In this document: positions 1-13,190 of the stretch, in pieces
How positions within the stretch are numbered: position 1 is the stretch's first letter
How the letters are laid out: every line of letters begins with the position of its first letter
IMG/VR virus record: IMGVR_UViG_3300007516_000001
Reading direction: 5' to 3' (one strand)
Source: a virus
DNA: 64,000 nucleotides
Program-made: the position numbers and the translations under genes
Notes under the pieces: generated by a model
The model's input: only the letters and a program-made list of their open reading frames with translations
Database searches by the model: none
What the model was told of the DNA's origin: nothing

Positions 1-1
1 G

Positions 2-268
2 GTACTATCTGAATTATCCGGTGATTGGGTCACTTGTGCTTGTGGGAATCTATGTGACGCTATACCTAGAAGAACCAAAAAAAATGCTGCTGACTGGGGA
101 AGGTCAGGTCTAAAAGGAGAACCCGTAGATTTTAGGTTAGCTCACATGGGTTTGCAATTTTCTTATCAGGTAAGAACTGAACAATATGCTCTTGCCATAA
201 GTACATTACGTGAAATTGAAGAAAGGGCAGTAGAGATATTAGAACAGATGGAAGGTACACTCGAATAA
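2..268 (+). CDS. Cys-motif family protein, copy 0 (5' end cut by window edge)
   Basis: Frame is open from the window edge to TAA at 266-268. Carries the WVTCACGNLCDAIPRR core and IEERAVEIL tail shared with five downstream paralogues. Confidence 0.8.
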   Translation, partial: VLSELSGDWVTCACGNLCDAIPRRTKKNAADWGRSGLKGEPVDFRLAHMGLQFSYQVRTEQYALAISTLREIEERAVEILEQMEGTLE

Positions 269-278
269 TTAATATATA

Positions 279-330
279 GGGTATGATAGAAATGTCATAC
301 CCTTTTCTTAGATTTGTTCTGTTAATCAAT
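279..330 (+). promoter_or_regulatory. Stem-loop plus promoter cassette, copy 1
   Basis: Hairpin gggtatga/tcataccc (279-302) followed by a T-run. TAgaTTTG -7-like box at 309-316. Conserved TTTGTTCTGTTAATCAAT at 313-330. ATG at 344. Confidence 0.7.
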
Positions 331-343
331 AAAGACTAAAAAT

Positions 344-742
344 ATGAATAAGCCCTTCAACATTCACAAAGAGAACCACTTTAATTGGTTCAGAGCTTTA
401 AAACTTCAAGAGGCTAGACAAAGATATCTTTACCAAAAAAAGCCTGATGCAGCAAGTGAACCTAGTACGTTTTATAAGGAAACTAAGGTAAGATACATAG
501 ATGCCTACTTTGAATTAAAAAAGATATCCTCATCATGGACTACTTGTGCTTGTGGAAATCTCTGCGATGCTATACCTAGAGCAGAGGGTAAACCCTTGGA
601 CGATATATTAGCTAATGAGGGCCAACAATTTTATACGTGCGTGGGTAACGAAGATTACCCCGAAGCTTTAAAAGCCCTATATAGAGTCGAAGAGAGGGCA
701 ATTCAGGTACTAACAGAAATGGGGGTAATCAATGTGGGGTAG
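344..742 (+). CDS. Cys-motif family protein, copy 1
   Basis: 132 aa ORF with IHKENHFNWFRAL, WTTCACGNLCDAIPR and VEERAIQVL motifs. Preceded by cassette 1. Confidence 0.85.
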   Translation: MNKPFNIHKENHFNWFRALKLQEARQRYLYQKKPDAASEPSTFYKETKVRYIDAYFELKKISSSWTTCACGNLCDAIPRAEGKPLDDILANEGQQFYTCVGNEDYPEALKALYRVEERAIQVLTEMGVINVG

Positions 743-1328
743 TAGACATTTAGAAATAGACCGGGTAATCTTTAGAAACCTGTGCATCCAACTTAAGGGG
801 TATACAGATTGTGAGGAATTGGGCCTTGCATCAAGAGAGGATGGTATATTAGGAGTTTCTTTACTTACTATACCTGCTAAATATGTATACCCCTTTCTAT
901 CCTATTGTGGGGATGAAATGTCAGAGGATGATAGACCCCGGGGTTATGGAGATTTTGAAACCTATAATTCTGATATAATTATAAAGTTCTTTCAATGGGC
1001 CCTTACACAGAGAAGAAGGATGGTATCTGTTGAAATGGAACTGAACCACTTTTACTGGCTATTCCATGATTTGTACCATGCCACTCATCATGTTTCGAGT
1101 TGCTTTCTTAATGTTGGGCCTAATAGTGAATTTGAAACCTATACTGCTACATTCGATTTAGCAAAAGAAGCCGGACCTGAATACTATGAACTCTGTTTAC
1201 TTACCGAAGATGAATCACGAGAATTAGTAGATGCCTTCAATACCCGATTTGCAAGTCGATGCGATAAAATGCCCTATTATATATTTGACCCCTACTTAAA
1301 AAAAGAAGAGCTCGAAATTGAAGATTAG
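732..1328 (+). CDS. hypothetical protein
   Basis: 198 aa ORF whose start overlaps the upstream stop. His-rich HDLYHATHH segment. No family recognised. Confidence 0.65.
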   Translation: MWGSRHLEIDRVIFRNLCIQLKGYTDCEELGLASREDGILGVSLLTIPAKYVYPFLSYCGDEMSEDDRPRGYGDFETYNSDIIIKFFQWALTQRRRMVSVEMELNHFYWLFHDLYHATHHVSSCFLNVGPNSEFETYTATFDLAKEAGPEYYELCLLTEDESRELVDAFNTRFASRCDKMPYYIFDPYLKKEELEIED

Positions 1329-1340
1329 GATATTAAGTAC

Positions 1341-1370
1341 CCTTTACGTATATTTGTTCTGTTAATCAAT
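1341..1370 (+). promoter_or_regulatory. Promoter cassette, copy 2 (hairpin half only)
   Basis: gtaccctttacgTATATTTGTTCTGTTAATCAAT, with the TAtaTTTG box at 1349-1356. ATG at 1384. Confidence 0.6.
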
Positions 1371-1383
1371 TAAACATAAAGAT

Positions 1384-1716
1384 ATGAAAAGTGCCGATGA
1401 AGTTAATGCAATGGTTGAAACCCTCTTAGAAAACATGGACTTTGAGAAGATTCATGCCTTAATGGTTGTGAACAAATGGACATGGAGTACTTATGATTAT
1501 CAAACTAAGGTTCATGAAAATCAAGTTCCAACACTTGAGGCTCTCAAAATTACTGCTCGAACCCTTATCGTTAGAATGTTAGGAGAACCAATAGGAAGCA
1601 GTATCGGTACAGGGGGCTTCAATGTTTCTGTCCTACGTATGCAAAATTCTGTACCTGACCATTTTTACCGACTTAGCTTTGATTGGGCTTCAGCCCAGGC
1701 TTCATACCATCAATAA
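1384..1716 (+). CDS. hypothetical protein
   Basis: 110 aa ORF directly downstream of cassette 2. Confidence 0.7.
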   Translation: MKSADEVNAMVETLLENMDFEKIHALMVVNKWTWSTYDYQTKVHENQVPTLEALKITARTLIVRMLGEPIGSSIGTGGFNVSVLRMQNSVPDHFYRLSFDWASAQASYHQ

Positions 1717-1717
1717 C

Positions 1718-2038
1718 ATGGGTTGCATACTTAAAACAGTTCTATTGATAGTGGGTATCTTTTTAGTGGGGGTTATGCTTTTAGAAGATAATCCCAAAAC
1801 ACCACCAGGCCCTACTCCCTATTCTTATGATTATGTCAATGCCAGAGAAATATGGCCCCAAGATACATTCCATCTGATGCAACACCCATACAGGTCAAAT
1901 CAATGGGTAACTAAGGAAGAGGGTAGAATAATTAAGGAAAGCAGAACATATCGAGCAAATACTAAAAAACCTGATACCTCAGGACAAGCATTAGAATCCC
2001 ATGTCGAAGATATCGTAGATGGGTTATTAGACCACTAA
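1718..2038 (+). CDS. hypothetical small membrane protein
   Basis: ATG at 1718, immediately after the upstream TAA (taacATG). N-terminal hydrophobic helix ILKTVLLIVGIFLVGVMLL. The track ORF start at 1622 overlaps the upstream gene and is unlikely. Confidence 0.6.
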   Translation: MGCILKTVLLIVGIFLVGVMLLEDNPKTPPGPTPYSYDYVNAREIWPQDTFHLMQHPYRSNQWVTKEEGRIIKESRTYRANTKKPDTSGQALESHVEDIVDGLLDH

Positions 2039-2048
2039 AACAAATACC

Positions 2049-2471
2049 ATGAATATTCACAAAGAGAACCCCTTTGATTGGTTCAAAGCCCTAGAAGAAC
2101 AACAAAAGTTATTGCTTGAATTAGATGCGTACCTAGAATCTCCAAGTCAAGACCCGATAATACAAATGGAGATGGATATAAACAACCTTATATACCAGAA
2201 AGAAAAACGCAAGTTAAAAGACTTAGCCAGTAATTGGGTCACTTGTGCTTGTGGGAATCTTTGCGATGTTATACCTAGAAGAGATGACAATTCGGTCAGA
2301 GAGCCTGCTGATGCTATTCTTTCTTCACAGGGGCTAATATTTTCAATAGCCATAGGAGATTCAAATTGGACGTTAGCAATAGAGTCTTTAAAACTAATTG
2401 AAGCCCGAGCAATACAGGTATTAGAAGAATTGTATCCCGATGCAAAGTTTCACCAATACCCAAAAGATTAA
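2049..2471 (+). CDS. Cys-motif family protein, copy 2
   Basis: 140 aa ORF with MNIHKENPFDWFKALEEQ, WVTCACGNLCDVIPRR and IEARAIQVLEE. Confidence 0.85.
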   Translation: MNIHKENPFDWFKALEEQQKLLLELDAYLESPSQDPIIQMEMDINNLIYQKEKRKLKDLASNWVTCACGNLCDVIPRRDDNSVREPADAILSSQGLIFSIAIGDSNWTLAIESLKLIEARAIQVLEELYPDAKFHQYPKD

Positions 2472-2477
2472 TATATA

Positions 2478-2529
2478 GGGTATGATTGATTAGTCATACC
2501 CTTTTCTTATATTTGTTCTGTTAATCAAT
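2478..2529 (+). promoter_or_regulatory. Stem-loop plus promoter cassette, copy 3
   Basis: Hairpin at 2478-2501, T-run, then TAtaTTTGTTCTGTTAATCAAT (2512-2529). ATG at 2543. Confidence 0.7.
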
Positions 2530-2542
2530 TAAACATAAACAA

Positions 2543-2935
2543 ATGAATATTCACAAAGAGAACCCCTTTGATTGGTTCAAAGCCCTAGAAGAACAAAGAA
2601 AGTTATCACTTGAATTAGAGGCCTTTTACGCATTACCCCCCAATCAAGACGTGGAAATAAACATGGATATGGGTATAAAAGACCAGATATACAAGAAAGA
2701 AAAACGTAACTTAAATATCCTAGCAGGGGGTTGGGTTACTTGTGCTTGTGGAAATCTATGTGACGCTATACCTAGATTAGATGACCAACTCCATGAGCCC
2801 GCAGACCAAATACTTTCTACGATAGGAGTCCTATTTTCAAAAGCCATAGGAAATTCAGATTGGAAGTTAGCAATAAAATACTTACATGAAATTGAAGCCC
2901 GAGCAGTAGAGTTATTAGAAGAGATTAACCGATAA
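2543..2935 (+). CDS. Cys-motif family protein, copy 3
   Basis: 130 aa ORF. The N-terminus is nearly identical to copy 2. Carries WVTCACGNLCDAIPR. Confidence 0.85.
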   Translation: MNIHKENPFDWFKALEEQRKLSLELEAFYALPPNQDVEINMDMGIKDQIYKKEKRNLNILAGGWVTCACGNLCDAIPRLDDQLHEPADQILSTIGVLFSKAIGNSDWKLAIKYLHEIEARAVELLEEINR

Positions 2936-2944
2936 CCTGAAAAA

Positions 2945-3694
2945 ATGAACCAAGATACTGAAGTACCTAAGAACATCATAGAAAAGCTGGAGAAGCTAAT
3001 GGCCCTAGAAGAAAGGGGTGGCACGATGGAAGAATCTATTAATGCCTCTACTCGAATACAGGAGATACTCCGAAAGTATAACCTCGACAGGTCTGATATT
3101 AATGCCAATAAGGAAGATGCCGGGGCCACTAAATTCAGTGGGGTATTCAATGACCTCTTTAAAAAGAATGAGGGTGATTTCTATGTAGTACTCCTTAATA
3201 ACATTGCAGAGATTAATGGGTTAGTATTGATAGCAGTCAGGAAAGAAGGACTGGCAATTAACCTGGGGGGTTATCGAATATATGGCAAAAAACATCAGAT
3301 AGAGATATGCCTGTTCTTCACAGACCAGCTTGCCACTAAAATTCGCATACTTGAAAATCGAGCATGGAATGAATACCGGGGAGATACTAAGAGGGGGCAA
3401 TATAGACGGAGTTTCTATAAAGGGGCTAGCAATGCTATTCTGTCTAAATTACGTCAGGCAGCTGAAATCTCAGAGAATAAAACTCCGGAGTATGGATTGA
3501 TGAGGGTGTCTGACTTAGACCAAGCAAGAGCCATTTGTAAACTGGACTTAGCAGGTGAAGATAGATTAAAAAGTGGCAAACAATCAAAAGCGGGTTCACA
3601 AGATGGATTCCACACAGGCATACAAGCAGGTTCACGAATGGACTTAAATAAGGGAGTTGGAAATAACCCGTCAAGTTCAAGACTACTAAATTAG
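2945..3694 (+). CDS. hypothetical protein with a DUF2786-like N-terminal helix motif
   Basis: 249 aa ORF. The N-terminal IEKLEKLMALEERGGTMEESINASTRIQEILRKYNL resembles the DUF2786 pattern common in phage and plasmid proteins. This is recognition by eye only. Confidence 0.45.
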   Translation: MNQDTEVPKNIIEKLEKLMALEERGGTMEESINASTRIQEILRKYNLDRSDINANKEDAGATKFSGVFNDLFKKNEGDFYVVLLNNIAEINGLVLIAVRKEGLAINLGGYRIYGKKHQIEICLFFTDQLATKIRILENRAWNEYRGDTKRGQYRRSFYKGASNAILSKLRQAAEISENKTPEYGLMRVSDLDQARAICKLDLAGEDRLKSGKQSKAGSQDGFHTGIQAGSRMDLNKGVGNNPSSSRLLN

Positions 3695-3695
3695 T

Positions 3696-3941
3696 ATGCG
3701 AAGTATTACCCAGGAGTTGTTGGAGTTAAATAAAGAAATGGATGCCCTTTACGTCCGATATGAAGCGCTGATTTACGTTATTGAACACCAACACTCCTTA
3801 GGTATATTCGACATCTCAAAGGAGTTTGCAGAAGCTGAGCAATTAGGCCATCTGATTAATGCCCTACACGAAATTCAAAGCTCTTGGATAAGAATACAAA
3901 TCATAAAGACTAAAACCATGAATACCTTTGGCTTAAATTAA
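3696..3941 (+). CDS. hypothetical protein
   Basis: 81 aa ORF tightly coupled to the upstream stop. Confidence 0.6.
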   Translation: MRSITQELLELNKEMDALYVRYEALIYVIEHQHSLGIFDISKEFAEAEQLGHLINALHEIQSSWIRIQIIKTKTMNTFGLN

Positions 3942-3946
3942 AGTCT

Positions 3947-4015
3947 TGCTCAGAGCAATTATCTTTTTATAAACATAGACTTACATATCTTTAGAAGAGA
4001 TAATTGCTCAGAGCA
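3947..4015. repeat. 18-bp inverted repeat with a TGCTCAGAGCA palindromic core
   Basis: tgctcagagcaattatct (3947-3964) and agataattgctcagagca (3998-4015), with one mismatch at the palindrome centre and a 33-nt spacer. Confidence 0.7.
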
Positions 4016-4097
4016 TCTTATTTGATGCCTATTTGAGAACTTCTATGATTCTTCTATATATAGATATGTAGAATAGGACCCGAAATAATAATATGTA

Positions 4098-4148
4098 GGG
4101 TATTTGCATATGTCATAACCTTGATATATATTTGTCTTGTTAATTCAT
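4098..4148 (+). promoter_or_regulatory. Degenerate stem-loop plus promoter cassette, copy 4
   Basis: gggtatttgcatatgtcataacc followed by TAtaTTTGTCTTGTTAATTCAT (4131-4148). A diverged version of the consensus cassette. Confidence 0.5.
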
Positions 4149-4169
4149 TATTCACTTAATACTTCTCGC

Positions 4170-4661
4170 ATGAAGAAATCAGAAAGGTTAGCTCTCGCCC
4201 AAATGGAAGCGTTGATAAAGACCCCTAAAAAGGTCAAGAATAATTCCAATGTTCAAGAGAAATTGGAAGAGGCCACTAAGGACTTAGTAAGAAAGAAAGT
4301 CAAAAAGAAAGTGGCAAAGAAAGTTGAACCGGAAGAAAAAAAGCCTAAATCCGATAAGAGGGTTAGAATTTTCCGTAATCTTGATTATGATAATGCCACT
4401 CGATTGGAGGCTAAAAAGCATCGTGACCAAGTTCGTCTTAAGGTCTTCAAGATTGTTGGACCCTATGCTGCAAAGCGTAGAGCAAATGCCCTTAAGAAGG
4501 ATGCAAGAAATGTAGCCTTTGAAAGTTTCAAAGAGTTATATACCCAAGAATACCTACTATCATTGGATAGAGTAGATGAGGTATTCAGAGGAGGCAATGA
4601 CAACATGAATGATATGGGTTTGTTCTTAGTTGACTTCAAAGCGTACCTGGGCCAGAAATAG
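4170..4661 (+). CDS. Lys-rich hypothetical protein (paralogue of 13302-13694)
   Basis: ATG at 4170 (MKKSERL). The track start at 4137 is non-ATG and lies inside the promoter cassette. The C-terminal FESFKELYTQEYLLSLDRVDEVFRGG...FKAYL matches the C-terminus of the 13302 ORF. Confidence 0.7.
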   Translation: MKKSERLALAQMEALIKTPKKVKNNSNVQEKLEEATKDLVRKKVKKKVAKKVEPEEKKPKSDKRVRIFRNLDYDNATRLEAKKHRDQVRLKVFKIVGPYAAKRRANALKKDARNVAFESFKELYTQEYLLSLDRVDEVFRGGNDNMNDMGLFLVDFKAYLGQK

Positions 4662-4685
4662 TCCAACCCATCAGATTAATGTTTA

Positions 4686-4737
4686 GGGTATGATAGAAAT
4701 GTCATGCCCTTTTCTTATGTTTGTTCTGTTAATCAAT
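4686..4737 (+). promoter_or_regulatory. Stem-loop plus promoter cassette, copy 5
   Basis: Hairpin at 4686-4709 with one G-U pair. TAtgTTTGTTCTGTTAATCAAT at 4720-4737. ATG at 4753. Confidence 0.7.
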
Positions 4738-4752
4738 TAGAACTAAAAGACA

Positions 4753-5037
4753 ATGAGCAAAACAAAACCCGAATCTGTCAAGGCCTTGATTCTTAGACTT
4801 GATAGCCAGAAAAGAAAAACCGAGGATTCAAAGGAAATTACGGAAATTCAAGGCCTCATCAATCAACTTGAAGCCCGACCCAGCAAGAGATGGGCCTACG
4901 GAGAAATATCTACCATAGCTAATGGCTATATATTGAACAAGGATTTAGTTGGCTTACGTAGGTTTCTTACCTCTTGCAAGAACCATCGCGTAGCATACCC
5001 TACCCTAATGGATAAACTCTTAAAAAACCAAAAATGA
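4753..5037 (+). CDS. hypothetical protein
   Basis: 94 aa ORF downstream of cassette 5. Confidence 0.7.
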   Translation: MSKTKPESVKALILRLDSQKRKTEDSKEITEIQGLINQLEARPSKRWAYGEISTIANGYILNKDLVGLRRFLTSCKNHRVAYPTLMDKLLKNQK

Positions 5038-5336
5038 ACTATCAATTCTCAATCAAGAATGCCCAACACTTATTAATACTTACTTGGATTGCCCTGCATT
5101 CTACTCAAGAATTGCAAGACTCTCATCATGGTATCGAGATAGATGATATCGTTGAAGTTCTTTTGGAACCCAACCCCGAAAAGGAAGATGAAATGAAAGT
5201 GACCCGAACCATCCATGCACAATTCAATGGAGCCTATGCAGAGCCCGGTAAGATGACTACCTTTGTAGAAGAGGCAATGCAATTCATTTCTGATTATGGG
5301 CTCAAATTAACCCTATCAACATCAGGGTTCTTTTGA
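5034..5336 (+). CDS. hypothetical protein
   Basis: 100 aa ORF with an ATGA start/stop overlap with the upstream gene. Confidence 0.65.
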   Translation: MNYQFSIKNAQHLLILTWIALHSTQELQDSHHGIEIDDIVEVLLEPNPEKEDEMKVTRTIHAQFNGAYAEPGKMTTFVEEAMQFISDYGLKLTLSTSGFF

Positions 5337-5355
5337 CTCAAAATATTAATATAGG

Positions 5356-5407
5356 GGGTATGATAGAAATGTCATACCCTTTTATTATATTTGTTCTGTT
5401 AATCAAT
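5356..5407 (+). promoter_or_regulatory. Stem-loop plus promoter cassette, copy 6
   Basis: Hairpin at 5356-5379. TAtaTTTGTTCTGTTAATCAAT at 5390-5407. ATG at 5421. Confidence 0.7.
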
Positions 5408-5420
5408 TAATCATAAACAA

Positions 5421-5819
5421 ATGAATATTCACAAAGAGAACCACTTCGACTGGTTCAAGGCTTTAAGAACTCAGAAAGTATTGGAGTTACTTAAAGAGAG
5501 ATATTATAATCAGAGCATTGACGGAATATATGAGGGCCCTTCTCAGATAGCCCGATGGATTCTTCTATATGATGCAAATGCCATAGATTTAGCATATCTT
5601 GCTAGTGACTGGCCCACCTGTGCTTGTGGGAATCTATGTGACGCTATACCTAGAAGAGACGGCCAACTCCATGAGCCCGCAGACCTCAGATTAAGAGGGC
5701 TGGGGTCCTCGTTTTATTACGCAGTAGAGTCAGAAGATTGGAATCAGGCTACGGACTTATTGCAGAAGATTGAGGCCCGGTCAGTAGAATTACTAAAAGA
5801 GATATACTCAAAAAAATAA
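5421..5819 (+). CDS. Cys-motif family protein, copy 4
   Basis: 132 aa ORF with MNIHKENHFDWFKAL, WPTCACGNLCDAIPRR and IEARSVELLKE. Confidence 0.85.
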   Translation: MNIHKENHFDWFKALRTQKVLELLKERYYNQSIDGIYEGPSQIARWILLYDANAIDLAYLASDWPTCACGNLCDAIPRRDGQLHEPADLRLRGLGSSFYYAVESEDWNQATDLLQKIEARSVELLKEIYSKK

Positions 5820-5823
5820 ACCC

Positions 5824-6273
5824 ATGTATACTCCGATAAAATTACACAGAGAAGCAGACTTTGACTGGTTCAAAATCTTAGAGAAGCAGGTACTGTTAAA
5901 GGCCGTTTTCCATAGATATTATGACAACGATAACATTCCAGAGCGCATGAAGGATAAAATACTTGAATATAGGAGCCTCTATATGAAACTCAGGAGTGAT
6001 TTGAAGATTAAATCAGGTAATTGGGTTACTTGTGCTTGTGGAAGTCTATGCAATGTTATACCTAACAGATATGGTGTAAAATCAGAAGGCCCCTTAGATG
6101 AAAGATTATACCAACTGGGCAGTCTTTTTCATAGGAATGTATCTGATGAGGAATGGAATGAGGCCATGTGGACTTTAGAAGCAATTGAAATCAGAGCAAT
6201 GGAGTTAATATCTGCAATCTATCCTGGCAGAACTATCCTAAATAACCACGAAAATAAATATGTAGGGGTATGA
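5824..6273 (+). CDS. Cys-motif family protein, copy 5 (most diverged)
   Basis: 149 aa ORF with HREADFDWFKIL, WVTCACGSLCNVIPNR and IEIRAMELI. Its stop codon lies inside the cassette 7 hairpin. Confidence 0.8.
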   Translation: MYTPIKLHREADFDWFKILEKQVLLKAVFHRYYDNDNIPERMKDKILEYRSLYMKLRSDLKIKSGNWVTCACGSLCNVIPNRYGVKSEGPLDERLYQLGSLFHRNVSDEEWNEAMWTLEAIEIRAMELISAIYPGRTILNNHENKYVGV

Positions 6274-6317
6274 TTGGAATGTCATACCCTTTTCTTATAT
6301 TTGTTCTGTTAATCAAT
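6266..6317 (+). promoter_or_regulatory. Stem-loop plus promoter cassette, copy 7
   Basis: Hairpin at 6266-6289. TAtaTTTGTTCTGTTAATCAAT at 6300-6317. ATG at 6326. Confidence 0.7.
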
Positions 6318-6325
6318 TAAACAAT

Positions 6326-6574
6326 ATGAAATATATACTGAGCATTTGCATACTATCAAACGTCGCATTCAGAACAATGAATCATCCGATGCCCCAAGAA
6401 AGAATCTACCATAAGGGAGAAATTCTTGCACCGGATTATGTTTCAACTGAATACAGAGTTATTAACAATGCAAAAGGCATGAATGAAGAAATGCCTTATG
6501 CCTTTACCGATAGTGAAATTAATGATGTGCTAAAGAAGTACACCACAGAACTAACTTCTAAACCCATAAACTAA
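6326..6574 (+). CDS. hypothetical protein
   Basis: 82 aa ORF downstream of cassette 7. Confidence 0.65.
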   Translation: MKYILSICILSNVAFRTMNHPMPQERIYHKGEILAPDYVSTEYRVINNAKGMNEEMPYAFTDSEINDVLKKYTTELTSKPIN

Positions 6575-7251
6575 TGAATCAACTAGCAAAAATCCTTAAC
6601 GAAGTTCTTACCCTAGAACAGGTTCTTGAGGTACTCCAAAAAGAGTTTAAAGACATACCTAAAATAGGTATCTATTCAGGTACAGAGGCCAATAGGCTCT
6701 ATAAACATCACGAAGATGAAGATGATTTCGTAGTAGATAAGGAGTATGAAGATACCACTCTCTATGCTTGCCAGAACTTTGCCTATATTGATGGAACCGA
6801 TGAAGAATATTTGGATGGAGCCTATTTCATTAACTTTAATGATGATTTAGTGCTAGAACTTACACCATCGACACCACCAACACTGGAATCAAGAATATTG
6901 GGCATTGAAGCAATAATAAAGAAACTACACGGGTTTGCAATTAGTCACCTACCTGTAAAAGAATCAGCAAGAAATAACTCTAAGTTCTGCAAGGAGGTTT
7001 TAAATGAATTGATTACTTACTCACCCCTTGAGCAACAGGTAATATTGGAACAATGGAAATTAGCCTCCATCCAAAACCGACATGAAAGAATTGAACTCAT
7101 GAAGCAAGATATTGCCCATAAGCAGAAGATGATAAAAACTATGGTAGAACAAATTGAGGGTATTCGATGGACCCTCAATAATGAGGTTAGATGGGCCGAT
7201 GACAATCCGAATTTCAAGGATGATGAGAATGATGAGGGCTCAAAAGATTAA
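6574..7251 (+). CDS. hypothetical acidic protein
   Basis: 225 aa ORF with its start adjacent to the upstream stop. Confidence 0.7.
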   Translation: MNQLAKILNEVLTLEQVLEVLQKEFKDIPKIGIYSGTEANRLYKHHEDEDDFVVDKEYEDTTLYACQNFAYIDGTDEEYLDGAYFINFNDDLVLELTPSTPPTLESRILGIEAIIKKLHGFAISHLPVKESARNNSKFCKEVLNELITYSPLEQQVILEQWKLASIQNRHERIELMKQDIAHKQKMIKTMVEQIEGIRWTLNNEVRWADDNPNFKDDENDEGSKD

Positions 7252-7501
7252 GACCGTGACTAAACTAGCCCTCAAAAATAAGGAACACGCGAAGAACATC
7301 GTAACCTTTGAGACCCTACCTCTTAGGCTCCATAACAATGCCACTCTTATTGCACCCTACCGAAAGAAAGCAGAAGAATCCTTGGCACATATAAATGCTT
7401 TGGAGCCTATTAGGAAAAAGAAGTGGTTGAAGCGTATTAGAAAAAGAATCAAGGCCCATTATTATCCATTAGCAATTCTAAAACCTAAGTCTTATCTTTG
7501 A
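7220..7501 (+). CDS. hypothetical basic protein
   Basis: In-frame ATGs at 7220, 7223, 7229 and 7232 near the upstream stop at 7251. Arg/Lys-rich (KKKWLKRIRKRIKAH). The track start at 7154 would overlap by about 100 nt. The true start is uncertain. Confidence 0.45.
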   Translation: MMRMMRAQKIKTVTKLALKNKEHAKNIVTFETLPLRLHNNATLIAPYRKKAEESLAHINALEPIRKKKWLKRIRKRIKAHYYPLAILKPKSYL

Positions 7502-7526
7502 TTAAACAAATAAAAACTATTCACAA

Positions 7527-8285
7527 ATGAGAAATGTAAGAGCAATACCCGAATACATTCCGGCAAAAGAACTAAAGAATTTCAAACTTGCCCAATATGA
7601 ACTTTATCCTGACCTTGAAGAAGGGGGTGAAGAAGGAGGTTATTATACCCGTAGAAGTGGTAATGAAAGTTATTGGGGTTTAGATTATCATGAGCCCTTA
7701 GATTGTTTCTGTCTTATGGTTTTGGATTATGATATGTTGAGTCCAGGCCAACAAAGGAACTTTGAACTATTCAGAATCAATGCCCAAAAACAATTGAAAT
7801 ACCCGATTATTGTGTCTATGATAGAGAGCCTAGAAGAAGATGCTAGATATCTCGGCATAGATACAGGTTTCATCAGAGGTTATGCAAGAACATTAATGTC
7901 AGACCCGAATTTTAGCACCCTAAAGTTTTCACCCAAAGAAAAGCCCTCTGATAGACTGTGTAAATTAATGTTATATGCTAGCCTCATAGAGGCAATTATA
8001 AGAATTGGGCACGTAGAAAATACCGATGATTGGAACCCATATTTAAGAATCAAAACCGATGATGGACATTCAATAGAAACTCCTATCGGGTTCACAAGCA
8101 TCGAATATGTTAGTGAAGGAAAATTGGCTCCCATAAGAGAATATGATGGCCCTGAGAGTATGATACCCAAAGACTTTAGTCTTAAGATGGTAATAGAAGA
8201 ACAATACCTTGATAAGAAACTACCTCGAGCGTATTTATCCATAGAACTAATAAAGATAGTCGAAATTAAACTTCATGCTTGCTAG
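7527..8285 (+). CDS. hypothetical protein (N-terminal domain paralogous to 11820-12098)
   Basis: 252 aa ORF. ESYWGLDYHEPLDCFCLM matches DSYWGFDYDEKDDVYCFM of the 11820 ORF. Preceded by the AACTATTCAC leader at 7515-7524. Confidence 0.75.
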   Translation: MRNVRAIPEYIPAKELKNFKLAQYELYPDLEEGGEEGGYYTRRSGNESYWGLDYHEPLDCFCLMVLDYDMLSPGQQRNFELFRINAQKQLKYPIIVSMIESLEEDARYLGIDTGFIRGYARTLMSDPNFSTLKFSPKEKPSDRLCKLMLYASLIEAIIRIGHVENTDDWNPYLRIKTDDGHSIETPIGFTSIEYVSEGKLAPIREYDGPESMIPKDFSLKMVIEEQYLDKKLPRAYLSIELIKIVEIKLHAC

Positions 8286-8312
8286 ATAACCCCAAATATT
8301 AATCATAAAGAT

Positions 8313-8786
8313 ATGAACAACTTATTCGAGCAAATCAAATCACACAAGCACTATGAGGGCCTTTTACACGTAGTGGAAGATGCCAAAACTATAGAGGCCA
8401 TCTGCTTAATACTTTCAGAAGATACCCAACTACTAGAGTTAGTTCGGGCCGATAACTATAATGTTGAAACCGATAAGATATACCCGTTAACTGTTAACTA
8501 CAATATTGAACCCTATTGTGCAGGGTTTATAATTGTATTCAACATACCCAGTAACCACAACCATTTATTAAGCCGAAGCGAGCAACTTGACCTAAGCCGA
8601 CATTATAAGAATCGCCACATGGACTTACTTAAAAGATTGGGTATGCTTAAACATTGTTTCGGAAGTTATACACCCGAAGAAACAGAAGATGAGGAGGCCT
8701 CTTTAGATATTCAGGTTGATAGTACCCAATACCCTATAGTAATGATAACCCTCTTTGAAAATAATGAGGTACACTCGAATAATTAA
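8313..8786 (+). CDS. hypothetical protein
   Basis: 157 aa ORF. Its 3' end runs into the extended cassette 8 sequence. Confidence 0.7.
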   Translation: MNNLFEQIKSHKHYEGLLHVVEDAKTIEAICLILSEDTQLLELVRADNYNVETDKIYPLTVNYNIEPYCAGFIIVFNIPSNHNHLLSRSEQLDLSRHYKNRHMDLLKRLGMLKHCFGSYTPEETEDEEASLDIQVDSTQYPIVMITLFENNEVHSNN

Positions 8787-8792
8787 TATATA

Positions 8793-8845
8793 GGGTATGA
8801 TAGAAATGTCATACCCTTTTCTTATATTTGTTCTGTTAGCAATTC
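8793..8845 (+). promoter_or_regulatory. Stem-loop plus promoter cassette, copy 8 (variant leader)
   Basis: Hairpin at 8793-8816. TAtaTTTGTTCTGTTAGCAATTCA at 8827-8845. AACTATTCAC at 8860-8869. ATG at 8870. Confidence 0.7.
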
Positions 8846-8869
8846 AGCTATCCAATAAAAACTATTCAC

Positions 8870-9283
8870 ATGACAAAATTAAAGAATGCCTCCAATAGCA
8901 CTAATCTTACCCCGGAAGATAGAGCAGAAATAAAAGCCTTTATGTTATCAACTTTAAAAGGATATAATGCCGATGGAGATATAGATACCATCTATGTAAA
9001 TCTAGACCGACATACAGGACCAGGAATAAACTTTGTAGGTTTCCCTGATAATCCGGTTGAATACGAATACACAGAGGAACTATTAGCCGAAGCAATAGAC
9101 AAAGTGCTAGATACTTATTTAGAAACCTCAGATGCCAAGAAAGGTTTTTTTATATATACCTGTGGAGATAATAGAGAAGTATCATTGGACCACGTAGATG
9201 ATAATGATACAGACCAAACTCTTGCCTGCTTTGAAAGTGAAACCTTAGAATCAGGTAGACATTATTATATAGGGTATGATTAA
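8870..9283 (+). CDS. hypothetical acidic protein
   Basis: 137 aa ORF. Its stop codon lies within the cassette 9 hairpin. Confidence 0.7.
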   Translation: MTKLKNASNSTNLTPEDRAEIKAFMLSTLKGYNADGDIDTIYVNLDRHTGPGINFVGFPDNPVEYEYTEELLAEAIDKVLDTYLETSDAKKGFFIYTCGDNREVSLDHVDDNDTDQTLACFESETLESGRHYYIGYD

Positions 9284-9323
9284 TATATCATACCTTTTAC
9301 GTATATTTGTTCTGTTAATCAAT
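9273..9323 (+). promoter_or_regulatory. Stem-loop plus promoter cassette, copy 9
   Basis: Hairpin ggtatgat/atcatacc at 9273-9294. TAtaTTTGTTCTGTTAATCAAT at 9306-9323. ATG at 9338. Confidence 0.7.
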
Positions 9324-9337
9324 TAAGACTATTTACT

Positions 9338-9619
9338 ATGGCACACAAATCACAATGGGTTGATGTAATTGAATCTTTGACTCGGAAAACAAAGAAAGTG
9401 AAATTTACCACTAAAGAAATTTCAGATGAGGCTAGACAACTATATAAGGAGGGCTCCTTAAAAAGCAAAGCCGACTATCCTTGGTTTATGTCAAACTATG
9501 TTTCATCGGCATTAAAGAACATGGCTAAAGCAAAGACCCCAAAGATAGGATTTGCATGGAAAAAAGCAGGTACTAAAGGAAAAACAAAAATCTGGTATTT
9601 AATCAATAACCCCAAATAA
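9338..9619 (+). CDS. hypothetical basic protein
   Basis: 93 aa Lys-rich ORF downstream of cassette 9. Confidence 0.7.
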   Translation: MAHKSQWVDVIESLTRKTKKVKFTTKEISDEARQLYKEGSLKSKADYPWFMSNYVSSALKNMAKAKTPKIGFAWKKAGTKGKTKIWYLINNPK

Positions 9620-9645
9620 CATGGACACCCCAATAATAATATAGA

Positions 9646-9697
9646 GGGTATGATTGAAATGTCATACCCTTTACGTATATTTGTTCTGTTAATCAAT
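9646..9697 (+). promoter_or_regulatory. Stem-loop plus promoter cassette, copy 10
   Basis: Hairpin at 9646-9669. TAtaTTTGTTCTGTTAATCAAT at 9680-9697. ATG at 9715. Confidence 0.7.
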
Positions 9698-9714
9698 CAA
9701 TCAATCATATAACT

Positions 9715-9969
9715 ATGACCGAAGAAACTTTACTCCATGCAGATGCGATAGTATCAATGGAAACCCTACCCCAACAAATAGACCACATATCGGCATCAAT
9801 GCATAAAAAGGTGAGAATAGCAGGTGAGTACATTGACAAATTACCCGAAGAGGAGAAGGAAGAGGCTAATCAATATATTCAGAATCGGGTTGAGGCTTAT
9901 TACGAACCATCTATCCTAGGCTCCGATAATCAAATGTATAGCGTAGCCTCTCTTGACAATATGTTTTAA
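9715..9969 (+). CDS. hypothetical protein
   Basis: 84 aa ORF downstream of cassette 10. Confidence 0.65.
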   Translation: MTEETLLHADAIVSMETLPQQIDHISASMHKKVRIAGEYIDKLPEEEKEEANQYIQNRVEAYYEPSILGSDNQMYSVASLDNMF

Positions 9970-9995
9970 CCCATAATCAAATAACCCCAAATAAC

Positions 9996-10556
9996 ATGGA
10001 CACCCAAGACCCAATTGAACACTTGCATCAAGATATAATGCAAGCACTACCCATAGGGGTAATTCAAAATATCAAGGCAATTAAATTTGTAAGCGATTTA
10101 ATTGCTGCCGAAGCCTTAGTTGAAAATGTAATAGAAGAGCTCAGAAATGTAGACCTGAATCTGACCGAAAAAGAAGAGGATGAATATACCCTAAGAATCC
10201 TTAGATGCTACTATGCCCATAAGGTAAAAGTCTTAAGAAGCAATAGCAAACCCGAACCCCAAAACAAAAGAGATTTGGGTAGAGATATGGACGACATCAG
10301 AAAGGACTTCAAAGAGATACTCAAGGATATCACCCTAGAAGAAGCCGATGAACTATATAGCTATTGCAAAAGACGTTATGGCATCAAGGTTCAAAGGGCA
10401 ATAGAAAAACTCGATAATGAGAACCAAAGAATGCTTGATGAGATGGCTACCTTGGCCGGAACCCAAGAAGATTTGAAAAGAGAATTACAAACACTGAACC
10501 AGCTGCAATATGGGTACGATTTAGACAACCATTATCATGAGTCTGAGGTTGATTGA
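9996..10556 (+). CDS. hypothetical protein
   Basis: 186 aa ORF rich in charged, coiled-coil-like sequence. Confidence 0.7.
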   Translation: MDTQDPIEHLHQDIMQALPIGVIQNIKAIKFVSDLIAAEALVENVIEELRNVDLNLTEKEEDEYTLRILRCYYAHKVKVLRSNSKPEPQNKRDLGRDMDDIRKDFKEILKDITLEEADELYSYCKRRYGIKVQRAIEKLDNENQRMLDEMATLAGTQEDLKRELQTLNQLQYGYDLDNHYHESEVD

Positions 10557-10581
10557 TTAACACTTAAATCAAACCCGAATG

Positions 10582-10611
10582 AGGGGGTACTTAAATGTAC
10601 TCCCTTTTTTT
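10582..10611 (+). terminator. Intrinsic terminator
   Basis: 9-bp stem agggggtac/gtactccct with one G-U pair and a 6-nt loop, followed by a T7 run. Confidence 0.75.
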
Positions 10612-10769
10612 ATGCCAATTCTCCAAGAGTCAATATGATGGATTAAATAACCAGATACCCATAAGGTAATCAAGGCCCTCAACCAAGAGTACCCATCATC
10701 CCAAAACCTACAAGCTATAGAGGTATAACCATCAACCCCTACCACCCCAAAACAAAAAAAATAACAACT

Positions 10770-11606
10770 ATGAAAAGTAACAAAGTAAGAAGAGTACCCA
10801 GACCCTTAGGAACTACCATAATGTTAATGGAGTACCACAAACAACCCAACGCAAATATACAAAAACAAATAAAGGAGCAACTCACAAAACATCTCATCAA
10901 TACCTATGCCTCAAACAATCAAACCTTAAACGGAAGGATATATAGTATAGAAGAACTAGCAACTTATCTTCAGGTACCACAGAATCGGGTAATGGGTCAA
11001 GTAGTAGAGCATTCAATGCAGATGGCTCGGGTATTAGGAGAGGATGGGTCGATGAAAGAGATGTATGAAGGCTTGCTTTTAACTGCCCTAGGTTGGGCCC
11101 TTGGCGATCGGGTCAAAGTTACCAAACAATTGGAGCTGTTGAACCGGAGCCAAAATGGCAAGTACAAACCATTTATTTCAGGTGAAGTTAATGGCCTTTT
11201 AGGTACCCTTTTGAAGAGCCAAGGAGCTTTATTAGAGGTAGCCAAGACAATGAAACCAGAAACACAAAGGCACCCACATCTACCGGGCCATAGCCAGGTC
11301 ATTAACGGGAACGTCCTATATAATAATGGAGTAAATGATGGCAGTGTTTCAAGTGTACCTGGCTCAAAGGCATTGACGGTCGATGAGGCCTCTAAATTAA
11401 TTAATGAAAGGGTTCAGGCGCCCATTGCCCTTAACCCTTTTAACGATTACCTGGAGGGTACCCCAAACATCTCAGCCCTTGGAGAAGTATCCAGCATATC
11501 TTTGGAGCCTGCTGTTCATTCCCACGACACCCAAGACGATCCGGGTACCCATGCTAGCCACCGGGCAAGAGCAAGAGGCTATGATGATGAGGTACCCATG
11601 ACTTAA
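10770..11606 (+). CDS. hypothetical protein
   Basis: 278 aa ORF, visibly more GC-rich than its neighbours. Preceded by a 158-nt C/A-rich untranslated stretch. Confidence 0.7.
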   Translation: MKSNKVRRVPRPLGTTIMLMEYHKQPNANIQKQIKEQLTKHLINTYASNNQTLNGRIYSIEELATYLQVPQNRVMGQVVEHSMQMARVLGEDGSMKEMYEGLLLTALGWALGDRVKVTKQLELLNRSQNGKYKPFISGEVNGLLGTLLKSQGALLEVAKTMKPETQRHPHLPGHSQVINGNVLYNNGVNDGSVSSVPGSKALTVDEASKLINERVQAPIALNPFNDYLEGTPNISALGEVSSISLEPAVHSHDTQDDPGTHASHRARARGYDDEVPMT

Positions 11607-11760
11607 TAATACCCCCCACTACCCTGGAGCCAGCAGAGTAGGGCGCCATACTGATGCCTTGCCTTATTATAGATTAAATAGGTTGGTTGGGTACCCTTAG
11701 ACCTACTCTGCTGGCTTGCTCTACCTGCCTACTCTACCGTGACCTCTACCCGAAATATTT
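11604..11760. repeat. GC-rich structured non-coding island A
   Basis: Perfect 14-bp inverted repeat gccagcagagtagg (11629-11642) / cctactctgctggc (11702-11715). CCTACTCT and CCACTACCCTGG motifs are shared with island B (12800-13078). Confidence 0.7.
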
Positions 11761-11790
11761 AATTAGGATTTGGGCAATAAAGGATGGATA

Positions 11791-11806
11791 TTTGCATTCA
11801 ATCAAT
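11791..11806 (+). promoter_or_regulatory. Degenerate promoter cassette (no hairpin)
   Basis: gaTAtTTGCATTCAATCAAT resembles the cassette core. AACTATTCAC at 11810-11819. ATG at 11820. Confidence 0.4.
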
Positions 11807-11819
11807 TAAAACTATTCAC

Positions 11820-12098
11820 ATGAAATACATTCCAGCATTAAAAATTAACTCACTTCCCTTAGAGCAATTTGGCTTAAAGGAGGAAGAGGGCAAGAAAGGG
11901 TTTTATTCTCCTATGAATGAGGATGATTCTTATTGGGGTTTCGATTATGATGAGAAGGATGATGTGTATTGCTTTATGTCTTGGGGCATTCATGCAGAAC
12001 ATAGTGAAGAAAGAAAAAAGCAGGTAGAATTTATCTTGGAGTTTTATCGGTTATCAACTTTCGTTCTCGGTTACGAAATGGAATTTGATTGCTTTTAA
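11820..12098 (+). CDS. hypothetical protein (paralogue of the N-terminus of 7527-8285)
   Basis: ATG at 11820 (MKYIPALK), right after the AACTATTCAC leader. The track start at 11784 lies inside the promoter-like sequence. Confidence 0.7.
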   Translation: MKYIPALKINSLPLEQFGLKEEEGKKGFYSPMNEDDSYWGFDYDEKDDVYCFMSWGIHAEHSEERKKQVEFILEFYRLSTFVLGYEMEFDCF

Positions 12099-12104
12099 TT
12101 AAAG

Positions 12105-12173
12105 AATAGGGCCCATTACTATTAATTAGGATATGGGTCCTATTCTATCTATATTTGTTCTGTTAGTAATTCA
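12105..12173 (+). promoter_or_regulatory. Stem-loop plus promoter cassette, copy 11 (different hairpin, same promoter core)
   Basis: 12-bp stem aatagggcccat/atgggtcctatt (12105-12144) with one G-U pair. TAtaTTTGTTCTGTTAGTAATTCA at 12154-12173. AACTATTCAC at 12186-12195. Confidence 0.65.
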
Positions 12174-12196
12174 ACTAACAATCTAAACTATTCACT

Positions 12197-12373
12197 ATGA
12201 AGGCATCACAAATTTTCAATCGTGGCATTATTCGTCACAATGCAGAATCTAAAGTATTAGTTCTGAAAGAAGGAGTTAAAGGAAGATATAAGGGTCCTAA
12301 AACTAAAAGTGATTCAATGGGTCCAATCTTCGCAGTTCGTTCTATTCAGCCTAAACAAAATTCATGGGACTGA
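12197..12373 (+). CDS. hypothetical small protein (58 aa, below the ORF-track cutoff)
   Basis: ATG at 12197, two nt after the AACTATTCAC leader. MKASQIFNRGIIRHNAESKVLVLKEG..., with TGA at 12371-12373. Confidence 0.55.
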   Translation: MKASQIFNRGIIRHNAESKVLVLKEGVKGRYKGPKTKSDSMGPIFAVRSIQPKQNSWD

Positions 12374-12465
12374 TATTATTCTTCGGCAAAATCATATTTG
12401 GAGTCCTATCAATTATTTTGATAGGTGCTTCAATGGGTGCTCTTCCAACTGATGAGGAGCAATGA
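12364..12465 (+). CDS. hypothetical 33-aa hydrophobic peptide
   Basis: ATG at 12364, overlapping the upstream stop. MGLILFFGKIIFGVLSIILIGASMGALPTDEEQ has a single predicted transmembrane helix. Confidence 0.4.
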   Translation: MGLILFFGKIIFGVLSIILIGASMGALPTDEEQ

Positions 12466-12481
12466 CAATATCAAGTAAGAT

Positions 12482-12513
12482 TTCTCCCATGGGTCCTAAT
12501 TCTCATGGGAGAA
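12482..12513 (+). terminator. Perfect 10-bp hairpin (possible terminator or processing site)
   Basis: ttctcccatg / catgggagaa with a 12-nt loop. No strong T-run follows. Confidence 0.4.
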
Positions 12514-12620
12514 TCCTATTAACAAAGGCTACATATTGCCTATAGGCCCCCACGAGGACAGGCCTGAACACGACATACAATCTCTTTACTCTGTGAATAG
12601 GAGTAGATTGAATAACCCCA

Positions 12621-12648
12621 AAGGGTCTTTAGAAATAGAGGCCCTTTT
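12621..12648 (+). terminator. Putative intrinsic terminator
   Basis: 7-bp stem aagggtc/ggccctt followed by TTTT. Confidence 0.5.
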
Positions 12649-12737
12649 CGGTGTGTAAAATTCAAGAACCTACTCTGCTTTGGCGTGATCTAAAATAGGA
12701 GTAGGTATTAAGGGCCTACCTGGCTTAAAGGCAATAT

Positions 12738-12797
12738 AGGCCTATAGGCATAGTATAGTAATTAGGCCTATAGGCATAGTATAGTAATTAGGCCTAA
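12738..12797. repeat. 26-bp tandem direct repeat, 2.3 copies
   Basis: aggcctataggcatagtatagtaatt occurs at 12738-12763 and 12764-12789, then a partial aggcctaa. Each unit holds the palindrome GCCTATAGGC and GGCATAGTATAG. Confidence 0.9.
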
Positions 12798-12799
12798 GG

Positions 12800-13078
12800 G
12801 GTCTGGTACCCTACCTACCTACTCTACCCATGCCCAGGGTACTAGAGGGGCCAATGGAGAGGGCAGGCACCCTCTGCCTAGGTTAGGTAGGTAGGTAGGT
12901 AGCAAGGGTACCCAATAAATTAATTAATAATCACCCACTGCCCTGGCACGTGTAGGGTACCGGAGACTCGAAGACCTTGCTTGCTTGCCCATACAATCGA
13001 ACCTGCTTGCCTGCCTGCCCAACCACCCCACTGCCCTGACCTTATTGCTCGAACCTTGCCTGCTCGGATAGTCAATCT
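12800..13078. repeat. GC-rich structured non-coding island B
   Basis: Inverted repeat ggtaccctacctacctac (12805-12822) / gtaggtaggtag-caa-gggtacc (12890-12912). (AGGT)n microsatellite at about 12884-12902. Pyrimidine-rich CTTG/CCTG repeats at 12975-13065. CCCACTGCCCTG occurs twice. No ORF of 60 aa or more. Confidence 0.75.
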
Positions 13079-13190
13079 GTGAATTTGTCTACATTGCATC
13101 CTTATTTAGAATCATTCCAAATAAAGAAAAAAAGTGAATTATTTTTTTATTTATGTTATTTGAATGAATTTATTTCTATCTTTGTAGAAG

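Follow-up and report, generated by a model that had tools for sequence, protein, structure and literature searches.

The window analysed here, a 64,000-nt stretch of the virus record IMGVR_UViG_3300007516_000001, carries 11-13 copies of a compact cassette within 12 kb of small genes, in which a hairpin with a T-run, a promoter-like box and a conserved leader follow one another immediately upstream of a start codon. We consider it likely that these cassettes are composite units combining a terminator, a sigma-A early promoter and a leader. All of them are intergenic, lie on the + strand and fall inside positions 279-12173, and the remainder of the window, including the structural and replication modules, is devoid of copies.

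From the sequence, we propose that the hairpin (11-13 bp) and the U-run would end the preceding unit of one to three genes on RNA arriving from upstream. The same DNA would act as a promoter for the primary sigma factor of the host (sigma-A, Bacteroides type), with the loop at the -33 position, the T-run as spacer and TA(t/g)(a/g)TTTG as the -7 element. The conserved T-nn-T-G would set the start at the G of GTTAATCAAT, and all units would give rise to mRNAs with the same A/U-rich leader, which is free of AUG and of Shine-Dalgarno (SD) sites and would suit translation initiation in Bacteroidota. The cassettes would form a one-directional punctuation of transcription for a region of small ORFans, presumably expressed early. 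Homologous recombination or gene conversion would keep the cassettes alike and permit the exchange of flanking ORFans, as proposed for the promoter early stem-loops (PeSLs) of T4-type phages.

The phage is a ~78-kb myovirus, most of which is held in the window; the longest contig of the same phage, which recurs in several JGI and ENA metagenomes, is 78.4 kb. Nearly all genes lie on the + strand, and those annotated encode a large terminase (TerL, at 19039), portal, sheath, tape measure and baseplate proteins, a DnaB-like helicase, a DNA polymerase, a RecA/UvsX-like protein and FEN. A host within the Bacteroidota is very probable, because SD-like cores were found in only 6 of 80 genes, A occupies position -12 in 71% and position -3 in 51%, and a CHU_C-domain gene is located just upstream of the window. 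The pattern of A at -12 and -3 agrees with the initiation determinants of Flavobacterium johnsoniae (PMC6847099).

Number and placement of the cassettes

Exact matches to TTCTGTTAATCAAT start at 317, 1357, 2516, 4724, 5394, 6304, 9310 and 9684 (n = 8, all on the + strand). With up to two mismatches, 10 matches were found against 1.47 expected, and none of 100 shuffled sequences contained as many. TAnnTTTGTTCTGTTA occurs exactly at ten sites, namely the eight above and the units at 8823 and 12150, besides a degenerate copy at 4127. Although TAnnTTTG appears 42 times on the + strand of the 64 kb, TTCTGT comes next in only ten cases, all of them between 309 and 12150. The same families were recovered by a repeat search (71 nt, 73-89% identity to the reference copy). 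TTTG and ATG are separated by 27 nt in 4 of 11 copies, the overall range being 22-39 nt. A longer contig of this phage, L059, reaches 7 kb further upstream than the window, and this part contains no further copy.

The repeated module described in the sequence-only reading is thus borne out by counts far above chance, on one strand and between genes. Its supposedly invariant stretch of about 20 nt is conserved, but strictly invariant only over 14 nt in eight copies and over the 8 nt TTCTGTTA in ten. The classification of individual copies (Table 1) needed some refinement. The copy at 8793, listed as full, possesses the hairpin and the core but continues with another leader after TTCTGTTA; the partial copy at 1341 retains nothing of the stem but part of its 3' arm; the copy at 4098 is decayed; and the partial copy at 11791-11806, homologous to that at 12105, departs from the -7 consensus by one mismatch. 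The copy at 12105 indeed combines a different, longer hairpin with the same promoter core. A promoter-only unit at 7493 had been overlooked.

Rfam gave no match in the window, megablast of positions 1-12500 found nothing among annotated phage records, and the exact 18-mer TTTGTTCTGTTAATCAAT retrieved, from IMG/VR and JGI metagenomes, only single-copy matches and a fragment of this phage, L051, 1.2 kb long, but no multi-copy relatives. String searches of the literature for the box sequences returned nothing relevant. In the literature on early-promoter and terminator motifs of Bacteroidetes phages, of which our coverage was incomplete, no such module was described; this absence is weak evidence for the novelty of the module.

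Predicted promoter and start site

The -7 element TAnnTTTG is exact in 10 copies and is followed, 4 nt downstream, by an invariant G. In F. johnsoniae, transcription starts 4 or 5 nt after the -7 element (PMC6847099). Both the match to the consensus and the position of the G at this spacing support the earlier identification of the box as a Bacteroidota sigma-A -7 element (PMC6847099). In the canonical copy (2467-2542), the -7 box TATATTTG is followed by the initiation region TTCT, then by GTTAATCAAT, ~13 A-rich nucleotides and ATG. Because of the F. johnsoniae spacing, we take the conserved G, the first letter of GTTAATCAAT, as the probable +1. With +1 at this G, the hairpin would therefore span approximately -43 to -18 and place its loop at the position of the -33 element. 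The predicted leaders are 18-35 nt long (23 nt in four canonical copies), A/U-rich, and free of SD sites and AUG.

An alignment of 16 copies, from this phage and from a related contig (L097, described below), left only TA..TTTG-T..TGTTA invariant, corresponding to -12 to +4.

Hairpins and predicted termination

Stable hairpins were predicted by folding in all eight copies listed as full, with energies from -12.5 to -18.7 kcal/mol and z-scores from -3.1 to -5.6. The canonical stem has the form AGGGTATGAT(A/T)-loop-(T/A)GTCATACCCT, runs directly into the T-run and ends 5 nt before the -7 box; it comprises 11-13 bp and not 8 bp as originally stated. The spacer between the hairpin and the -7 box is either TTTTCT or TTTACG. 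A terminator scan called 7 of the 8 hairpins on the + strand, and the eighth, at 9273, lies outside the calls of the scan and is the one that folds at -12.5 kcal/mol. On the - strand, a terminator score was obtained for a single hairpin (9670-9645), with a weak tail. The interpretation of the hairpin and T-run as a terminator is thus supported in silico, as a G+C-containing stem-loop is followed by a U-run on the transcribed strand, albeit with a short U-run.

The stop codon of the upstream gene is located within the cassette in 5 of the 8 full copies, twice inside the stem or the loop, and units of one to three genes, which overlap or abut one another, extend from one cassette to the next hairpin. 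A separate idea, that the 5' ends of the cassettes serve as a three-frame stop, was discarded: 6 of 8 cassettes close all frames, but so do 37% of shuffled sequences, and the difference is not significant.

Relative to the window, the stem arms AGGGTATGA/TCATACCCT are replaced in L097 by AGGGTATTGA/TCAATACCCT or GGGGCATTGA/TCAATGCCCC (-19.4 and -20.2 kcal/mol). Two double substitutions and an inserted base pair set these two L097 stems apart from those of the window, all pairs being preserved, and the stem of the copy at 4686 shows a U.G change. The stem pairs were compared by hand from the folds, since MAFFT misplaces the inserted L097 base pair, which precludes a formal count of covariation. 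The comparison suggests that the structure of the hairpin rather than its sequence is conserved, on the strength of few independent events.

Strains and relatives

Six contigs that encode the identical DUF7168-like protein belong to the same phage, at 99.8-99.9% identity; five span several cassettes and one only the first. Differences in gene calls among them are due to point changes. One strain polymorphism falls in a -7 box, at position 311: the window, L059 and L063 carry TAGATTTG, and L060 and L061 the consensus TATATTTG.

The homologues of TerL form a large group of phages of 75-84 kb. There is no near relative among annotated phage records, and the TerL of the unannotated gut phage MT121964 is 56% identical. 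The next relative, L097 (TerL 73% identical), has five similarly built units ahead of the terminase gene, with the core TATATTTGT(T/C)(C/T)TGTTAATCACTTAAT...TTCACAATG. Strong hairpins are present in two of these units, and the three without a hairpin keep the core. Two of the five genes behind them match window genes at 41-45% identity, and the rest are without homologue in the window; L097 is too diverged for breakpoint mapping. More distant relatives, L098 (TerL 65%) and L179 (64%), have TAnnTTTG promoters, separate terminators and leaders with CAATTAA or TTAATCAAT, at varying distances from the promoter, and the tight fusion of terminator and promoter is absent. In MT121964, the stereotyped promoter is another one, TTATTTGCAT-N-TATATTTGCAT, and its repeat shows no evident hairpin.

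Several observations weigh against the interpretation proposed here. With regard to the promoter, the -33 element is weak, since of 8 loops only 3 have TTG at a distance of 19 nt from the -7 box (TAG or TAA in the others), and two copies (TAGATTTG and TATGTTTG) have G at -10 or -9. In F. johnsoniae, where the -7 element was refined to TAHHTTTG, G at -10 or -9 is virtually absent, and the -33 element is itself weak (PMC6847099). With regard to the terminator, the U-tract (UUUUCUU or UUUACG) is short or contains an interruption, and the near-identity of the stems within the genome is also compatible with recent duplication. The putative early timing is deduced from position and gene content only. 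Finally, in the parts spanned by the six same-phage contigs there is no cassette-bounded insertion, deletion or replacement, and searches with the 18-mer, the DUF7168-like protein (which retrieved only itself) and TerL found no relatives at intermediate distance. The epithet mobile in the sequence-only reading is accordingly not demonstrated. The comparison of gene content that it called for gave a divided answer, as strains show no swaps but the cassettes of L097 flank mostly unrelated ORFans.

Similar units in unrelated phages and the role of the leader

A scan with TATATTTGTNNTGTTAATCA was the source of multi-copy matches in contigs of unrelated Bacteroidota phages. L105/L115, L113, L139/L143 and L102 have in common TATATTTGTA(A/T)TGTTAATCAAT(T/C)AAACAA...ATG, preceded by an upstream part different from that of the cassettes. 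L139 and L143 (JBEIFG010000127.1 and JBEIFG010000110.1), with two and three Bacteroidota-type phage promoter units, respectively, and small phage-like genes, are assigned to a 'Chlamydiales bacterium' metagenome-assembled genome and are probably mis-binned phage DNA.

The most extensive set was found in the contig of a jumbo phage (L108/L116; IMGVR_UViG_3300001336_000001, 288 kb, GC 30%), in which 37 stereotyped units occupy 25 kb and one sits before almost every small gene. Their general layout is an A-run, a hairpin with TTTGG in the loop, a T-run, TATATTTG, TATTG, a leader (TTAATCAATTAAAAC in approximately one third of the units and TCTAATTAAAAC in most others) and ATG. A strong hairpin is present in 11 of the 37 units, nine of which have the -33 TTG in or at the loop. 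The units thus resemble the cassettes in the order of their parts, from a hairpin whose loop holds the -33 TTTG(G) through the T-run, TATATTTG, T-nn-T-G and leader to ATG, and in being present in dozens of copies; they differ in A/T-rich stems that vary from copy to copy, in a strong -33 element, and in lineage and genome size. The leader GTTAATCAATTAAA is common to the jumbo phage and a second unrelated phage group.

Single matches to the core were also detected in the chromosomes of Mucilaginibacter, Pedobacter, Flavobacteriaceae and others, where they precede ordinary genes. A special host motif was rejected as an explanation, since ~15 promoter-like matches among an estimated tens of millions of Bacteroidota promoters are close to chance by this rough estimate.

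These comparisons bear on the second function that the sequence-only reading had attributed to the leader, on the grounds that it is conserved beyond the needs of a promoter. The proposal in its explicit form is that the box GTTAATCAAT(TAA), from +1 to +14, is a site in DNA or at the mRNA 5' end for a phage regulator of early transcripts. Joint shut-off or processing of early transcripts is exemplified by RegA and RegB of phage T4. The exactness of the box in 8 copies, its TTAAT-N2-ATTAA symmetry and the single 5' end that all early mRNAs would have in common are what such a site would predict. Nevertheless, only -12 to +4 is invariant across the two related phages, the functional-looking copies at 8793 and 12105 swap the box after +4, L097 has ATCACTTAAT or ATCTTTAAAT instead, and in L179 TTAATCAAT stands at a variable distance from the promoter. 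Moreover, the same box after the -7 element in the unrelated L105/L113/L143 and in the jumbo L108/L116 would require a common regulator. We regard a dedicated regulator site as unlikely, though the best placed of the alternatives. The recurrence of the leader in both unrelated groups, and of the fused layout in the jumbo lineage, points to the transcription or translation machinery of the host (RNA polymerase at the start-site region, or SD-less translation from an unstructured, A/U-rich leader free of AUG) rather than to a private regulator, and could also reflect horizontal spread of the module. The common leader GUUAAUCAAUUAAA(A/C), which is found in three unrelated lineages, could be a signal for sigma-A in the initiation region or for promoter escape, or an SD-independent enhancer of translation (e.g., a bS1 site).

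Possible recombination between copies

The cassettes are themselves mosaic. The copy at 8793 matches that at 279 exactly from hairpin to core and then continues with the leader of the copy at 12105. The copies at 8793 and 279 also share 17 nt further upstream, which encode the C-terminus of a paralog (...GTLE*) at 279 and are read in another frame (...VHSNN*) at 8793. All four combinations of spacer type (TTTTCT or TTTACG) and leader type are present, and the copy at 1341 breaks off within the 3' stem arm. Mosaic and truncated copies fit recombination or gene conversion between copies. The cassettes would be suitable substrates, because ~70 nt are directly repeated ~10 times and the phage has a RecA/UvsX-like recombinase of its own. 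Overall, we see the arguments for and against a role of the cassettes in recombination as evenly balanced. The recombinase gene adjoins that of a 5'-3' exonuclease (FEN) at 60989-63014, and the two constitute phage-own recombination machinery.

The repeats might instead be passive relics of tandem duplication of a family of ~130-aa paralogs (Table 1). The cassettes at 279, 2478 and 5356 stand directly before paralogs and three stand directly behind them, and the homology between 2458-2583 and 5336-5461 extends 40 nt into the coding sequence. However, at least seven units precede unrelated ORFans, and at the DNA level the cassettes share 86-89% identity, against 53-57% for the paralogous genes that follow them. 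L097 keeps the core before mostly non-homologous genes, and the mosaic copies likewise speak against simple relics. This alternative is largely refuted, and we assign it little probability.

Comparison with known systems

A PeSL combines a strong early promoter for the host sigma factor with an overlapping terminator stem-loop, is conserved over ~100 bp and extends from a stop codon to ATG; PeSLs are enriched among ORFans and mediate modular shuffling in T4-type phages (PMC2839356; PMC4122927). The analogy drawn in the sequence-only reading holds feature by feature, including the promoter-overlapping stem-loop (PMC2839356). In PeSLs and, by prediction, in the cassettes, a host-sigma early promoter and a terminator stem-loop form a composite conserved over roughly 70-100 bp (in 8 copies here, the hairpin ends 5 nt before TAnnTTTG) which finishes with a translation-initiation signal. 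Both are concentrated among ORFans in a variable region, with many intergenic copies here and a gene content largely different in relatives; and both show signs of recombination among copies in phages with a recombinase of their own.

The differences are equally clear. The cassettes use the Bacteroidota -33/-7 grammar (TAnnTTTG) and PeSLs the sigma-70 -35/-10 grammar; in the cassettes the stem-loop precedes the -7 box and its loop covers the -33 position; and an A-rich leader without an SD sequence takes the place of the SD site of PeSLs. The PeSL promoter is sigma-70-like and comes with an SD site and an AT-rich upstream element, a combination that does not occur in the cassettes. Furthermore, the phage is a ~78-kb myovirus and not T4-type, its TerL being 26-28% identical to that of T4-like cyanophages. 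Activity of PeSLs, breakpoints in close relatives and mini-circles are features of the T4-type system, whereas the cassettes are known from sequence alone. By analogy, we regard the cassettes as working like PeSLs, that is, as a Bacteroidota counterpart and not as a member of the PeSL family.

As promoters, the cassettes resemble those of the Bacteroidota primary sigma factor (-33 TTTG/-7 TAnnTTTG) in the perfect -7 element, the purine 4 nt on, the AT/T-rich spacer and the SD-less leader (PMC6847099). They differ in the addition of invariant T(-4), T(-1), G(+1) and TTA(+2 to +4), in a -33 element that is weak and within the hairpin, and in the two copies with G at -10 or -9. Stereotyped promoters with leaders before many small early genes are likewise found in L087 (sigma-70-type repeats with SD), L096, L089 and MT121964, but a promoter-fused terminator hairpin such as that of the cassettes was not seen in these repeats.

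In phage N4, short hairpins of early promoters are read by the virion RNA polymerase. The cassettes similarly have a conserved hairpin just upstream of the predicted start site of early genes, and the module could in principle serve transcription machinery specific to the phage, be it an RNA polymerase, a sigma factor or an N4-like polymerase that reads hairpins. Conservation beyond the host -7 box to +4, and the nearly identical hairpin sequence in 8 copies, would be expected in that case. The invariant block nevertheless includes a perfect host -7 element at the correct distance from the conserved G. In contrast to N4, the hairpin is accompanied by a T-run and a host -7 box and appears to be dispensable, as the copies at 1341 and 7493 and three units of L097 retain the core without it, and the hairpins of L097 vary by compensatory change. 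No gene for an RNA polymerase or sigma factor was found among the annotated proteins, the annotation being incomplete, and matches to the core upstream of chromosomal genes in Mucilaginibacter, Pedobacter and Flavobacteriaceae are about as frequent as chance would give for host promoters. A phage-specific apparatus seems to us slightly more improbable still than relics of duplication. Least credible of all is a selfish miniature mobile element of the REP (repetitive extragenic palindromic) or MITE (miniature inverted-repeat transposable element) kind: the repeat is short, hairpin-bearing and multi-copy, and one copy brought foreign flanking sequence with it, but the copies have a single orientation and a similar spacing to the start codon, lack terminal inverted repeats and target duplications, and were found neither outside the ORFan region nor, by the 18-mer search, in genomes other than the same phage.

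Implications

If the reading of the cassettes as composite terminator, promoter and leader units is confirmed, the PeSL principle, in which regulatory punctuation doubles as a recombination handle for the shuffling of ORFans, would also hold outside T4-type coliphages, in an unrelated phage group from a phylum whose grammar of promoters and translation is different. There is a modest chance that this is a general rule for Bacteroidota phages. A fuller version, which we put forward tentatively and consider doubtful as a whole, is that fusion of a terminator with a sigma-A promoter, with -33 in or near the loop, is general in early regions of these phages, that the leader GUUAAUCAAUUAAA(A/C) is read by the host, and that cassettes are the main points of ORFan exchange. 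For engineering, a ~75-nt self-insulating unit made of a terminator, a strong promoter and an SD-less leader would be of use in Bacteroidota, where such parts are scarce. The cross-lineage leader is also a candidate sequence for the study of how Bacteroidota ribosomes choose start codons without Shine-Dalgarno pairing.

Individual units, neighbouring genes and other features

The coordinates of all units are given in Table 1. A second conserved leader end, AAACTATTCAC(A), directly precedes the ATG of five genes. In L097, the ATGs are preceded by ACTTTTCACA.

Table 1. Cassettes and associated features of the window (all units on the + strand; energies in kcal/mol; coordinates in the window unless stated).
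Feature	Span	Strand	Hairpin	-7 box	Leader	Start codon	Remarks
Cassette 1, full	266-343	+	278-303 (-15.8, z -4.1)	TAGATTTG 309-316	box 317-330; predicted +1 G 321	344	upstream stop 266-268
Cassette 2, truncated	1338-1383	+	none (z +1.3); partial 3' arm TACCCTTT	1349-1356	box 1357-1370	1384	upstream gene ends at 1328; family D3
Cassette 3, full	2467-2542	+	2477-2502 (-14.5)	2508-2515	box 2516-2529	2543	upstream stop 2469-2471 within cassette
Cassette 4, decayed	4095-4169	+	disrupted (z -0.2)	TATATTTG 4127-4134	box mutated to TCTTGTTAATTCAT	4170
Cassette 5, full	4675-4752	+	4685-4710, with U.G pair (-15.8, z -5.2)	TATGTTTG 4716-4723	box 4724-4737	4753
Cassette 6, full	5345-5420	+	5353-5382 (-18.7)	5386-5393	box 5394-5407	5421
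Cassette 7, full	6255-6325	+	6264-6291	6296-6303	box 6304-6317	6326	upstream-gene TGA 6271-6273 within 5' arm
Promoter-only unit	7493-7526	+	none	TATCTTTG 7493-7500	ATTAAACAAATAAAAACTATTCACAA	7527	overlaps end of upstream gene; family D14
Cassette 8, chimeric	8766-8869	+	8792-8817	8823-8830	TTCTGTTA 8831-8838; variant leader common with cassette 11	8870	5' part as in cassette 1
Cassette 9, full	9261-9337	+	9271-9296 (-12.5)	9302-9309	box 9310-9323	9338	upstream stop 9281-9283 in loop
Cassette 10, full	9635-9714	+	9642-9673 (-18.0, z -5.6)	9676-9683	box 9684-9697, then (CAAT)n	9715
Stand-alone intrinsic-terminator-like hairpin	10581-10612	+	hairpin + T7 (-16.7)				after gene 9996-10556; closes last cassette-driven unit
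Degenerate unit, homologous to cassette 11	11759-11819	+		near match GATATTTG 11787-11794	CATTCAATCAATTAAAACTATTCAC	11820	family D18
Cassette 11	12103-12196	+	12103-12146, longer and different (-24.6, z -5.7)	12150-12157	TTCTGTTA 12158-12165; variant leader	12197
AAACTATTCAC(A) leader ends	7510-7526, 8855-8869, 11808-11819, 12185-12196, 13290-13301
Paralog genes	1-268 (partial), 344-742, 2049-2471, 2543-2935, 5421-5819, 5824-6273; in L059, 6896-7324

Among the genes of the cassette region, none of 10 searched, the majority flanked by cassettes, had a Pfam match above the curated cut-off, and none of 8 searched in PHROGs had a functional annotation. Seven genes (Table 1), one of them in L059, encode paralogs of ~130-149 aa with an invariant W-x-T-C-A-C-G-x-L-C-x-x-I-P, which are 35-65% identical to one another and have no Pfam or PHROG match. 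In 32 IMG/VR contigs from diverse phages (GC 33% to 57%), the family has relatives, each present as a single gene. None of the 32 loci retrieved in this way contains the cassette, and a screen of them for repeated 12-mers found other stereotyped promoter-like repeats only in L087, L089 and L096.

A further arrangement, at 13177-13301, consists of a promoter-like box TATCTTTG and, starting within 4 nt after it, a terminator-like hairpin with T6 (13188-13219), followed by an AT-rich leader of ~80 nt and the gene 13302-13694, whose product has a Lys/Ala-rich C-terminus and is a paralog of that of 4170-4661; it looks like an attenuator. The gap of 228 nt ahead of the decayed cassette 4 contains a long near-perfect inverted repeat (TTGCTCAGAGCAATTATCT ... 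AGATAATTGCTCAGAGCA) at 3945-4020.

Finally, non-coding stretches rich in G+C and dense in repeats are located at 11607-11786 and 12450-13100 of the window, as well as at 2212-2897 of L097 and 3276-4124 of L098. In the window, the repeats comprise two tandem copies of the 26-nt GGCCTATAGGCATAGTATAGTAATTA (12740-12791), (TAGG)n near 12884 and runs of CTTGC/CCTGC at 12980-13020. A stretch of this kind occupies the same place in the two relatives, 5' of a gene for a Lys/Ala-rich protein of 130 aa, and may represent a replication origin, a packaging site or the genome ends.

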